A stretch of DNA of 64,000 bases from Magallana gigas (GCF_963853765.1 NC_088854.1:60016001-60080000); one strand, 5' to 3'. Shown: positions 3,287 through 13,214, numbered from the stretch's first letter. Notes: generated from the sequence alone by a model not told the origin. A program made the numbers and translations.

Positions 3287-3885
3287 TGTCACCCGGGATT
3301 TTCTTTGTTTATCTGATGACAACTGAAATAATGACCAAGGCTTCTTTAATAAAGTTTACGTCGTTTATTCTTGAGTGTCCAGCAAAAAGTGACGCGCTGG
3401 GCACTGGATACAAAAATCAGCCTGGTCGAGGTAGGGTTCAACAAAGGGGTAATTATCAAAACAACAAAAACATATACAGATACATATACCCAATTACCTA
3501 TCGGGGGCCTCTCACAGAAAAGATACCTAAAAGAGCAGGTCTAACAAAGAAACTTAATCCGATGAACTGACACTAATTGAGTCAAGAGGACATCAAAAGA
3601 ATTTGTTAATCGCATTGCGTGGCTTGGCGTAAAGGCTATTTGTTGATAAATAAAATGGAATTTAACGTGCAATCAAAATGTGTGAATATGTACCTAACTT
3701 CTTAACTTTTTGGCTTTAAGCTAAAATAAGTGTTAATCATTATTCTGCGATAAAGAAAGGATTAACTTAGGGATTTTCTTGAAGATGTTAGATTAAAATT
3801 GCTGATTTTAAGATAGAAAGAAAAAATTATTTTTATATCAAATTTATTATAAAATATAGAAGAGGGTCGATTAGAACTGATGATA
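3287..3885 (-). repeat. 3' LTR (599 bp)
   Basis: Direct repeat of 12616-13214 with about 7 substitutions by eye. Termini in element orientation are TATCA...TGACA. Confidence 0.95.
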
Positions 3886-3900
3886 AGTCCCTCCTGGTTT
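3886..3900 (-). promoter_or_regulatory. Polypurine tract
   Basis: The minus strand reads AAACCAGGAGGGACT immediately before the 3' LTR. Confidence 0.75.
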
Positions 3901-4322
3901 GAAAAATCTTTGTCCTCAAAGATGAAAAAAAATAGGGATGTAAAAGTAAAAAAAAATAATGAGAGGTGGGTAATGTAATCACATATAAACAAAATCTAAG
4001 CTAAAGAACTATAACATTAAAGAAATAAATTGCATTAAAATATGTACAGAGGTAGGTATGAAATGACACACAGTATGAATACATGGGGAAGAAAAAAAAA
4101 CCAAAAAAAGGAAAACATAGGCTTTGTACTCAACTTAGGAAGTGGACGACCAAGTGACATGATACAGAACATGGGAGTACAAAACAAAATATATTGTGGA
4201 CAAAATACATGACATTAGTTAATACAAACCAAGCATATTTGGTACAATAACATGGTATTCTTGCACACTCCTTTCACACAAAGTAAGCTCTGCACTTCCA
4301 GATCTAATGCAGTGAATAAAAT

Positions 4323-6705
4323 TTACTGTAGTAAACGAAAATATTGGTGGTGGGATAATAAAAAGTAAACTGTATATGGTTGAGCTAACAAATTTCGCAG
4401 TCTGTGAGCCTTAAGTGGTGAAATGAGAATGGTGGTGGGAATGTTGATGCGTTTGTTTGTATGGGTATTTTCAATAATTAAGTTGGGTGCATCTAATGAG
4501 AGGTTTGCCCAAATAAGGTATGTTCTGCGTATGTTGATGTGTTGGATGTCTTGTGGAGGTTGAATGTTCCAGTTGTCTGGACAGAGTGGGAGTGTTAGTA
4601 GTGGGATTAGGATGCAATCAGTTCCAGAAGGGAGTTCCATGTGAAGTGTAGTTTTGTGTGTTTGTTTGGATTTGTTCCATAGCCTGTGTGCATAGAAACA
4701 GATAAGTAAAGTAGTGAAAGCTGAAAGTGTAACATATGGCCATGGTGTCGTGAATGAAGTGTAGATGTTTTGAAGGATAGGTGATGGTGAGTCAGTGTTT
4801 GGACCATTATTGTAATAGGATATGAGGTTAGGATGTGGGGTAGGGAAGGCTGAAGTTTGGTTAGGAATGTGGGTTACAGCAACAATAGTTGTTAATTTTC
4901 TAATTTTGAAGAAAGACCAAATACAGTATAGCATGCATAGTGTTGTTAACGCAGAAGCTACCATAGCAATTGTACCACTAGTATCAGGAAAAGAATCAAC
5001 AGTGAAGTCAATTTGACCTGCTAACATGGATTCAGCAAAAGATTGAAATACAGTCTCGTCTTTCTTAGCTAATTTTGCCATTTTCTTTAAACTTAAAAGA
5101 TGTTTCAGATCTGCAGCCAAATACTGAGAAAATGAATGATTAAAAATTTTCAATTTAGGAATTTTTAGATCAAGATATTGTTGGAATGTTGTATCGCCAA
5201 AGATTGTTGAATAAAATTTTGGATCAAAGAATTCTTGGATAAGAGCAAGGTTGACAGGGTGTAGCACAGTTATGGAATTAGAGATGTTTTGACATTGACC
5301 AATTCTAGGGGGTAGATATAAATCTCCTGAAGTAACTGAACACAAACATGGTAAATGCATTACACAAAATGGGCAACCTTTAATTATTCTTTGACCTGTT
5401 GAGCAATCGAGGGCGAGCATTGAAGTTTGATAAAAAAGGATACTAGAGGGAGATAATTCAATAATTGATGGTTTTATCTTGTTTGGAAAAAATCTGAAGT
5501 CACATAATTTGTATACAGAAGATTTTTGGTTGTTAAATAATGATGATATGCTGGTTGATGAGGCAGAGGAAGTAAGTGCGAGGTGAAAAGTGCAAAATTT
5601 GATTGATGTACCTTTGCAGTTTGAAATTTGATTTGAAGTAACATGTGTGAAGTGTTGGTTATCATGTGTTTGTGCAAAGTAAGTTGGGACATCTGCAAGT
5701 TGTGTGGCATGTGAAGTTGATGAATTGATGGGTACAGGAAATGAGTAGACTCTGTACAAAAGAAGTGGTAGCTTAAATGGAGAGATTGGGATTTTTAAAG
5801 TCAAAAATAATGTAGAATGGGTCCTAGCATATAAAAAATCACCAAATGAAAAAAAAATATAAGGGGTCTTTATGAATAATATTAAATTTGGGATATTTTT
5901 GGTCGATTATGTTTTGAATTTGATTTAAAGATGATTTAATAACATGCGGGGTAAGCAAAAAGGGAGATAACTTGCCTTTTATCAATTCATTAATGCTAAT
6001 TTTGATGTGTTCTAATGCAAGGTTTAAAGTAGCTGTAGCATTTGTTTGTTTCAAAATTAACTGTTCTAAAAGAGCAAACTCATTTTCCACAGAATCTACA
6101 GAACGATGAAGTAGGTCAGTGAGGGCAACTGTGTCATCATGATTTTTCTTAATTGCATCCATAACATTGTTAAATCGAGCATCAACAGTAGAGATGAAAG
6201 AAGATAAATGTTTTTCTTGAACAGCCATAGCTTTAGCAATTTTAACATTGTTACGATTAAGGAGTTGCATATGACGCTGTAAAGTATCAATATCGTCTGA
6301 AGTAGCAGTGCCAAAAAGAGATTTGGAGATTTGGCCGACAAAGTCAAATATTGCACGCTTAGATCTGGAAGAGCCAATGAATTGATTTCTATGGGGGATT
6401 TGGGATTGGGGTATAAGGGCGTGGACTTACCGGACAGTGGAATTGACACTTGCCATCGTTTGGGTTCTTAAAGTATTAAGTGTTTTAATAATATGTTTGC
6501 TGTACTTGCACTGTGGGGCGTTGTTACAGTACAGTTCTCGGTTTAAGTAAACTGCTTTCGGTTGTGGGATCTGGAATGTGTGGGCCCAGTATTCCTGTCC
6601 CAGGTAAAGTTGATGGGTTGGTTCAAAGAGGACTCCATAATTCAGTCTTTGGACTGCAGCAGCATCACCGGTGGACACAAAACAAAGGAGAGACAAAAGA
6701 CTCAT
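4323..6705 (-). pseudogene. env: Env-like class I fusion glycoprotein (F-type), about 790 codons when repaired
   Basis: Signal peptide MSLLSLLCFVSTGDA. In-frame TAA at 6427-6429. Furin site RSKR (6355-6366) followed by fusion peptide AIFDFVGQISKSLFGTA, then a heptad/coiled-coil region. +1 frameshift in a T9 run (5849-5857). Cys-rich segment (CSTG...GCPFCVMHLPCLCSV), TM TIAMVASALTTLCMLYCIWSFF and a second hydrophobic segment. Confidence 0.85.
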
Positions 6706-6928
6706 GATGAGGAAGACGTTGGATAGTCCAGGAGTACCTTTGGGAAGGAAGCAAGATTCAGGATTATGTTCTGTACACTTTGTTAGCCCTTATAGGTAAC
6801 ATGTTTATGGCATGAGCTACATATAAAAATACTAACAATGGTCCATAACGAGTGGCTCAGGGAGCAGAGATAGAAATGGGATTATAGGAAAGGTTAGGTA
6901 AAGAGTCTTGGACTAGTCGATGTCAAAT

Positions 6929-12586: not shown

Positions 12587-12602
12587 GTGGGATCTTGAGC
12601 CT

Positions 12603-12612
12603 TTCTCCACCA
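12603..12612 (-). promoter_or_regulatory. Primer binding site, probably tRNA-Ala
   Basis: TGGTGGAGAA lies 3 nt inside the 5' LTR and is complementary to a tRNA 3' end ...UUCUCCACCA, as in many tRNA-Ala(AGC). Confidence 0.65.
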
Positions 12613-12615
12613 ACT

Positions 12616-13214
12616 TGTCACCCGGGATTTTCTTTGATTATCTGGTGACAACTGAAATAATGACCAAGGCTTCTTTAATAAAGTTTACGTCGTTTATTCT
12701 TGAGTGTCCAGCAAAAAGTGACGCGCTGGGCACTGGATACAAAAATCAGCCTGGTCGAGGTAGGGTTCAACAAAGGGGTAATTATCAAAACAACAAAAAC
12801 ATATACAGATACATATACCCAATTACCTATCGGGGGCCTCTCACAGAAAAGATACCTAAAAGAGCAGGTCTAACAAAGAAACTTAATCCGATGAACTGAC
12901 ACTAATTGAGTCAAGAGGACATCAAAAGAATTTGTTAATCGCATTGCGTGGCTTGGCGTAAAGGCTATTTGTTGATAAATAAAATGGAATTTAACGTGCA
13001 ATCAAAATGTGTGAATATGTACCTAACTTCTTAACTTTTTGGCTTTAAGCTAAAATACGTGTTAATCATTATTCTGCGATAAAGAAAGGATTAACTTAGG
13101 GATTTTCTTGAAGATGTTAGATTAAAATTGCTAATTTTAAGATAGAAAGAATAATTTATTTTTATATCAAATTTATTATAAAATATAGAAGAGGGTCGAT
13201 TAGACCTGATGATA
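12616..13214 (-). repeat. 5' LTR (599 bp)
   Basis: Direct repeat of 3287-3885, followed by the TSD copy ATTA. Confidence 0.95.

Follow-up and report, generated by a model that had tools for sequence, protein, structure and literature searches.

A 64,000-nucleotide (nt) stretch of Magallana gigas DNA (GCF_963853765.1 NC_088854.1:60016001-60080000), referred to here as the window, carries on its minus strand at positions 3287-13214 a retrovirus-like element flanked by long terminal repeats (LTRs). We interpret it as a decayed Ty3/gypsy element with an F-type env gene and a chromodomain, that is, an ancient errantivirus, in whose lineage a UAG stop codon, an 8-nt spacer and a stem between gag and pol likely give occasional readthrough and thereby much Gag and little Gag-Pol (probability about 0.8). 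Element coordinates below are positions in the window, and all element features lie on its minus strand.

A conserved stop codon, spacer and stem between gag and pol

In the window copy, gag and pol are separated by an in-frame UAG (11236-11238), behind which lie an 8-nt spacer (11228-11235) and a 10-bp stem capped by a 3-nt loop (11205-11227). Spacer and stem together (11205-11235) constitute a predicted readthrough stimulator. The single in-frame UAG followed by a hairpin that an initial annotation of the window had described was thus present. Since this copy has many other breaks, the UAG is recognizable as programmed only through its relatives. Among 30 loci fetched by protease likeness, there were 21 in which the Gag knuckle was followed by a UAG and, after an 8-nt spacer, by the same stem; the remainder comprised one UAG without a stem, one with the 5' arm only and seven that were broken or truncated. 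Eighteen 10-kb loci bearing a reverse transcriptase (RT) yielded 11 local stems, one long-range stem and one UAG alone, along with one decayed junction, two loci without gag and two with a single frame. The UAG and stem were retained down to ~31% protease identity.

A 19-nt junction pattern had 51 matches in genome G000, compared with 8 for a reversed control, and 47 of the 51 were located at a protease match. When metagenomes were searched with the pattern alone, 6 of 24 matches were gag-UAG-pol junctions, one of them with a chromodomain and env; the other 18 had no retroelement match and looked like chance hits. The pattern had no match in viral_contigs, and an Rfam scan of the junction returned no relevant family. 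The junction motif also detects such elements in raw DNA without a protein search.

In an alignment of 18 junctions, 96% of stem cells were paired versus 27-48% in slid controls, and 13 stem cells were altered on both sides, with 0 of 500 shuffles as high. The spacer was 8 nt in all 18, and gag and pol were in frame with UAG-G in every stem-bearing family. The Pro codon was CCT in 18/18 junctions, and the third positions of codons +2 and +3 were fixed although 8 and 4 residues, respectively, vary. The stem was stronger than synonymous recodings (≤3/300) in 15 of the 18 junctions. Two related families (L048 and L101) form a 12-13-bp stem across ~180 nt in which the upper pairs are different. 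These comparisons support the view that the UAG is a conserved recoding-type signal, constrained at the nucleotide level. Four observations weigh against it: the count of pairs changed on both sides was not above that in shuffles (198/500), the lower four stem pairs were invariant, 6 of the 18 aligned rows came from a pattern that requires the stem, and one locus (L044) has a UAG and env but no stem match.

No -1 slippery heptamer preceded the stop in 17 of the 18 junctions. Terminal loops measured 3-7 nt, and the longest pairing between loop and downstream sequence was 1-5 nt and not conserved. Because no conserved loop pairing was found, we describe the junction structure as a hairpin, unlike the pseudoknot in Moloney murine leukemia virus (MoMLV). 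The result is a compact recoding signal for widespread invertebrate retrovirus-like elements, of which short-loop, long-loop and stop-less variants occur naturally.

One further copy (G000:C5:34515571-34520853) has an env 96% identical to that of the window, but its junction and the start of its protease are those of a different family (47%); it is likely a recombinant.

Readthrough and other ways to make Pol

Under readthrough, most ribosomes would terminate at the UAG and produce Gag. A minority would be held back by the stem, which lies 8 nt downstream and thus at the entry channel for the mRNA; these ribosomes would insert an amino acid and continue into Gag-Pol, which would then be cut by the element's protease. 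We favor readthrough because frame, stop and spacer are all fixed and the stem is present. An 8-nt spacer with a downstream structure has precedent in readthrough, according to two sources (PMC13517186, PMC3159437). As described there, the MoMLV signal likewise has UAG-G, an 8-nt spacer and a structure that begins at the ninth nt past the stop, and is situated between the knuckle of Gag and the DTGA of the protease. An H-type pseudoknot is required in MoMLV, whereas the window lineage has a simple stem with a loop of 3-7 nt or ~180 nt, and the spacer sequences differ. The gammaretrovirus-style readthrough proposed in the initial annotation thus holds for the UAG-G and the 8-nt spacer but not for the pseudoknot, which was not found. 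Stems with the ~180-nt loop resemble the extended stems of alphavirus type.

Stop suppression may operate in Skipper and in some of the Tor elements. Stop-separated gag and pol are known from fungal Ty3/gypsy elements with UGA (Tj1, Tosmo), and Tj1 transposition requires its gag stop. Tj1, Tosmo, Tcry1 and Tca2 share with the window lineage an in-frame gag/pol stop in an LTR retrotransposon (PMC4600332, bioRxiv 2022.12.06.519325, PMC2194720). They differ in using UGA (in a UGA-CU context in the fission-yeast elements) and in being fungal, and these sources describe no env for them; Tca2, moreover, is of the copia type rather than Ty3/gypsy. We found no report of a UAG and stem signal in an env-bearing animal Ty3/gypsy element, as judged from literature listings, and older papers could hold a precedent. 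A lineage-wide signal of the readthrough type apparently had not been described before.

There are at least two other explanations for the junction. Pol could be made from its own mRNA, by way of an internal promoter or splicing, or by reinitiation, in which case the UAG would be a plain stop and the stem would serve some other step, for example packaging, dimerization or RNA processing. Tca2 sets an example, since it has a promoter at the junction, and its UGA, 8-nt spacer and predicted pseudoknot gave no readthrough in yeast reporters; Tor elements are described as expressing env from an internal promoter. Also, in 12 of the 18 junctions a Met from which a separate Pol could begin lies ahead of the protease. 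Yet the other 6 have no usable Met there, and a separately made Pol would not account for gag and pol being in frame with UAG-G wherever families carry the stem, for a spacer constant in length or for the loss of the 3' arm of the stem where the stop is gone. Contigs from RNA libraries, one of 7,527 nt, span the junction unspliced; they derive from close copies and may include DNA. No splice joint was found in reads or contigs, with read depth low and contigs prone to drop rare forms. Raw reads were few (four runs, 6-129 reads each), and one polyA run was mostly sense, given the usual kind of stranded library. One RNA run that contains the stretch is labeled "oyster metagenome," in keeping with an oyster as the likely host. 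We consider a separate origin of Pol improbable, though it is the more serious of the two rivals.

The second explanation is that a dead copy acquired the UAG as a further disabling mutation, with the hairpin a product of chance or of protein conservation. The many other breaks in the window copy fit this idea, as do the residues A-P-I, which are still present in L054, a sister element without the stop; their retention there means that some protein constraint exists. The identical UAG, however, occurs in families whose gag and pol frames are otherwise open, and contigs of other origin have it too. Synonymous positions do not vary, and the long-range stems persist. On sequence comparison, cross-family conservation refutes the disabling-mutation reading, which we regard as next to impossible.

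A possible link between loss of env and loss of the stop

To relate the stop to env we used an RT tree of 34 rows drawn from G000 and metagenomes. A 23-row clade (support 100/100) contains all 19 rows with a UAG; env and UAG are both missing from the 11 distant rows. Within the clade there are three env-less lineages, all without the stop. The full-length env-less element L054, of which L092 is a second copy, is 90% identical to L048 across pol and has LTRs that are 99.9% identical. It has a single gag-pol frame with a Lys codon at the position of the stop, and the 3' arm of the stem is missing. A covariance model found nothing below E 0.01 in the env-less loci or in L044. Contrasts between env and stop were concordant in 4/4 cases. 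By copy count (115 of 126 protease matches and 74 of 77 env matches used, split or short pieces dropped, copies not independent), 33 had both the motif and env and 62 had neither.

Several points count against such a link. Four contrasts give p=0.125, one of them is the split from distant families and another involves gag-less elements, and the labels of two loci (L040 and L045) were assigned at family level. In addition, 14 protease matches had the motif without env, and 6 copies had env without the motif. The pattern is no more than suggestive: a high Gag:Pol ratio would be of greatest importance to enveloped particles that bud, and this may explain the loss of the stop in env-less derivatives. 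Control of Gag:Pol may thus be tied to possession of an envelope, which bears on the transition from retrotransposon to virus.

Three other loci (L052, L053 and L091) are LTR elements present in multiple copies. Their LTRs are near-identical, and they have a frame for protease, RT, RNase H and integrase (PR-RT-RH-IN), with no preceding gag frame and no env match. They possibly depend on Gag from relatives.

A Ty3/gypsy element of the chromodomain errantivirus type

The pol order PR-RT-RH-IN, the LTRs and the RT-RNase H region, which matches Ty3 at 6e-70 and the RTs of murine leukemia virus (MLV) and foamy virus at ~1e-24 to 1e-26, support assignment of the window element to Ty3/gypsy (Metaviridae), with a class I F-type env as its third open reading frame (ORF). 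Pfam families occur in the expected order: gag (Retrotrans_gag, 1e-5), aspartyl protease (7e-11), RVT_1 (9e-28), RT_RNaseH (1e-34), integrase (rve, 5e-13, with Integrase_H2C2 also matched), chromodomain and Baculo_F. The chromodomain (6995-7123; PF00385, E 5.4e-6, 26.7 bits against a cut-off of 25.1) was in place at the Pol C terminus, as the initial annotation had it. Pfam did not find it in five related Pols of the env lineage and found it in two env-less ones; it is patchy and independent of env.

The combination of env and chromodomain, which had been put forward as unfamiliar among characterized elements, is not new, because a chromodomain errantivirus clade is in print (PMC13524379). Chary & Hayashi describe Ty3/gypsy elements with env from many kinds of animals, as well as a chromodomain clade in Cnidaria, Mollusca and Annelida, placed basal to chromoviruses; all six chromodomain-positive elements looked up there are ENV_F, two of them with a tRNA-Ala primer site. 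Ancient errantiviruses encode an F-type or gB-type Env in their third ORF and have a "mini" domain rather than a pseudo-RNase H behind RNase H; the corresponding place in the window Pol is taken by a ~150-aa bridge. As in ancient errantiviruses, ORF3 of the window element encodes an F-type Env, and, as in the chromodomain clade, the chromodomain is C-terminal to the integrase. The two further share the gag-pol-env order, a furin site and fusion peptide in Env and, in some mollusc members, the tRNA-Ala primer site. The words "readthrough," "read-through," "frameshift" and "cytoplasmic" occur 0 times in the main text of that paper, where the Env analysis covers the ectodomain only. We set the window family beside this clade by description, and it might itself be in the published list.

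Might the element be a lokiretrovirus or a true retrovirus instead? Lokiretroviruses have an Env like paramyxovirus F with an RXKR site (PMC7947760), and gamma- and epsilonretroviruses are described as typically using UAG readthrough. Lokiretroviruses differ in that they live in vertebrates, have a tether along with RNase H and possess an RT that is sister to those of retroviruses, and "stop" and "frameshift" occur 0 times in that text (PMC7947760). In the window element, a single RNase H directly follows RT, no second one was found by Pfam, and RT-RNase H is far nearer to Ty3 than to MLV or foamy virus. We therefore consider a retroviral identity very unlikely.

An F-type fusogen as a lineage trait

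The fusogen part of env (4920-6705) comprises a signal segment, an RSKR site (6355-6366), a fusion peptide (6301-6354), a heptad helix, Cys-rich beta domains and a first transmembrane (TM) segment (4920-4976). It is interrupted by a stop (6427-6429) and a frameshift near 5840-5906. These parts correspond to the signal peptide, cleavage site, fusion peptide, heptad region, Cys cluster and TM segment listed in the initial annotation. Baculo_F matched the window env at 2.3e-8 and was likewise detected in 6 out of 10 Envs from the family. There were 77 matches to env in G000, which makes env a lineage trait rather than a one-off capture.

Because the window copy is broken, the fold was modeled on the ectodomain of a natural sibling. 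The model (predicted local distance difference test [pLDDT] 62) matched the F proteins of respiratory syncytial virus (RSV; 7e-10), human parainfluenza virus 3 and baculovirus, in line with the suggested class I kinship. On the other side, the model is middling, with the same pLDDT and TM-scores (structural alignment) of 0.2-0.4, and just 5 of the 10 Envs have a canonical furin motif. A PDB sequence search with the Env profile returned weak heptad matches alone. Env would be made from a separate mRNA, and cleavage at RSKR would then yield a class I fusogen. Splice joints that could mark an env mRNA were not seen in four raw-read runs (6-129 reads each) or four contig runs, which are too shallow to establish absence. 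Loose read ends at 12652 were considered as a trace of splicing and rejected, as longer sibling LTRs account for them.

The top predicted viral structure for the Env ectodomain model was an uncharacterized 801-amino-acid (aa) abalone herpesvirus protein (E 1e-26, 17% identity, TM-score 0.41), a hint from modeling that mollusc herpesviruses and these elements may share F-type genes; a literature search on this point found nothing. Two loci (L056 and L057) have env-type frames of 781-817 aa with no RT match within the same 10 kb, and are either deletion derivatives or retained env genes.

A second module at the end of env

The env frame continues for ~200 residues past the first TM segment, an extension that the initial annotation had missed. 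This C-terminal module (4323-4919) consists of basic residues, a signal-like segment, a short linker and a second TM segment (about 4662-4739), followed by a ~110-residue beta domain (4326-4658) that weakly resembles matrix (M) proteins of Mononegavirales. Its structure matches were weak: 7 of the 8 top rows were matrix proteins at 6-10% identity, from Borna, Newcastle disease (NDV), Marburg, Ebola, metapneumo- and respiratory syncytial viruses (comparators Borna M 3f1j, NDV M 4g1g, filovirus VP40, and M of human metapneumovirus and RSV). Pfam gave no shared family for the tail (0 matches for that of the window, single-member matches among 82), and there was no PDB sequence match and no usable Atlas match. 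Mononegavirales matrix proteins are separate soluble proteins, unlike this domain, which is membrane-anchored and encoded inside env.

Signal peptidase would probably cut Env again behind its anchor, which would free a second, small membrane protein whose beta domain faces the cytosol. We tentatively propose, while holding it to be rather doubtful, that the lineage has a two-protein envelope cassette of the negative-strand-virus kind, in which one env frame gives rise to a class I F fusogen and a signal-peptidase-released, membrane-anchored, Mononegavirales-like matrix protein, with particle stoichiometry set by a UAG and stem signal that originated independently of gammaretroviruses and is discarded upon every loss of env. 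Should the tail prove to be a matrix protein, the fusogen would not be all that these elements acquired from enveloped RNA viruses, and the account of env acquisition would change. We give roughly even odds to the idea that the domain is nothing more than the fusogen's long cytoplasmic tail, or has a widespread beta fold such as that of 2H-phosphoesterases. Against this idea, matrix proteins fill nearly all of the top structure rows, a signal-like segment and a second TM segment stand between the domain and F, one multi-copy family retains the module without the F ectodomain, and there is one invariant His alone rather than two HxS/T motifs.

In a several-copy family (L051:2157-3212, minus strand), the UAG-stem and full pol are kept and the third ORF, of 352 aa, has the env C-terminal module alone behind a different N terminus, without the F ectodomain.

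Layout and decay of the window copy

The complete LTR-gag-pol-env-LTR layout with target-site duplication, primer-binding site and polypurine tract, as first annotated, was recovered. Two 599-nt LTRs (5', 12616-13214; 3', 3287-3885) differ by 7 mismatches, have TA...CA termini instead of TG...CA and are flanked by an ATTA duplication (13215-13218 and 3283-3286). The primer-binding site (12603-12612) is a 10-nt contiguous match to the 3' end of host tRNA-Ala(AGC) behind a 3-nt spacer, and the polypurine tract (3888-3895) is short at 8 nt. LTRs often start with TA rather than TG, and gaps from LTR to primer-binding site or polypurine tract are 3-4 nt (window, L052, L054 and L055); the LTRs of several siblings are longer near the 3' end by 1.1-1.2 kb or more.

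All three genes are disrupted, a feature absent from the initial annotation, which had described a potentially infectious lineage; the window copy itself is defective. The gag gene (11239-12289), with a capsid-like domain, 21-nt repeats and a CCHC knuckle, is interrupted by a frameshift (near 11921-11964) and by a stop codon (11617-11619). The pol gene (6929-11235) encodes protease, RT, one RNase H directly behind it, a ~150-aa bridge without a Pfam match, integrase, an SH3-like region and the chromodomain; it is interrupted by frameshifts (near 9832-9875, 7716-7755 and 7286-7386) and by a stop codon (8391-8393). This copy and its nearest sibling differ by 142 substitutions and by 12 indels, of which 8 break the frame. 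Because 5 of these 8 adjoin runs of at least 4 identical bases, some breaks may be assembly errors. Relatives with long open frames were among the fetched loci, as had been anticipated.

Neighboring sequences

Perfect 35-nt inverted repeats (269-303 and 13910-13944) enclose the retroelement, which is inserted in a Cys/His-rich ORF without a Pfam match (pieces at 2103-3308 and further left); the enclosing unit is likely a DNA transposon that served as host. A second, distant Ty3/gypsy element (44475-50167, minus strand) has one open gag-pol frame of 1706 aa, followed by a small C2H2 zinc-finger ORF, with no in-frame stop and no env seen. At 16539-18827 (plus strand) lies a 762-aa single-exon frame with no Pfam match.
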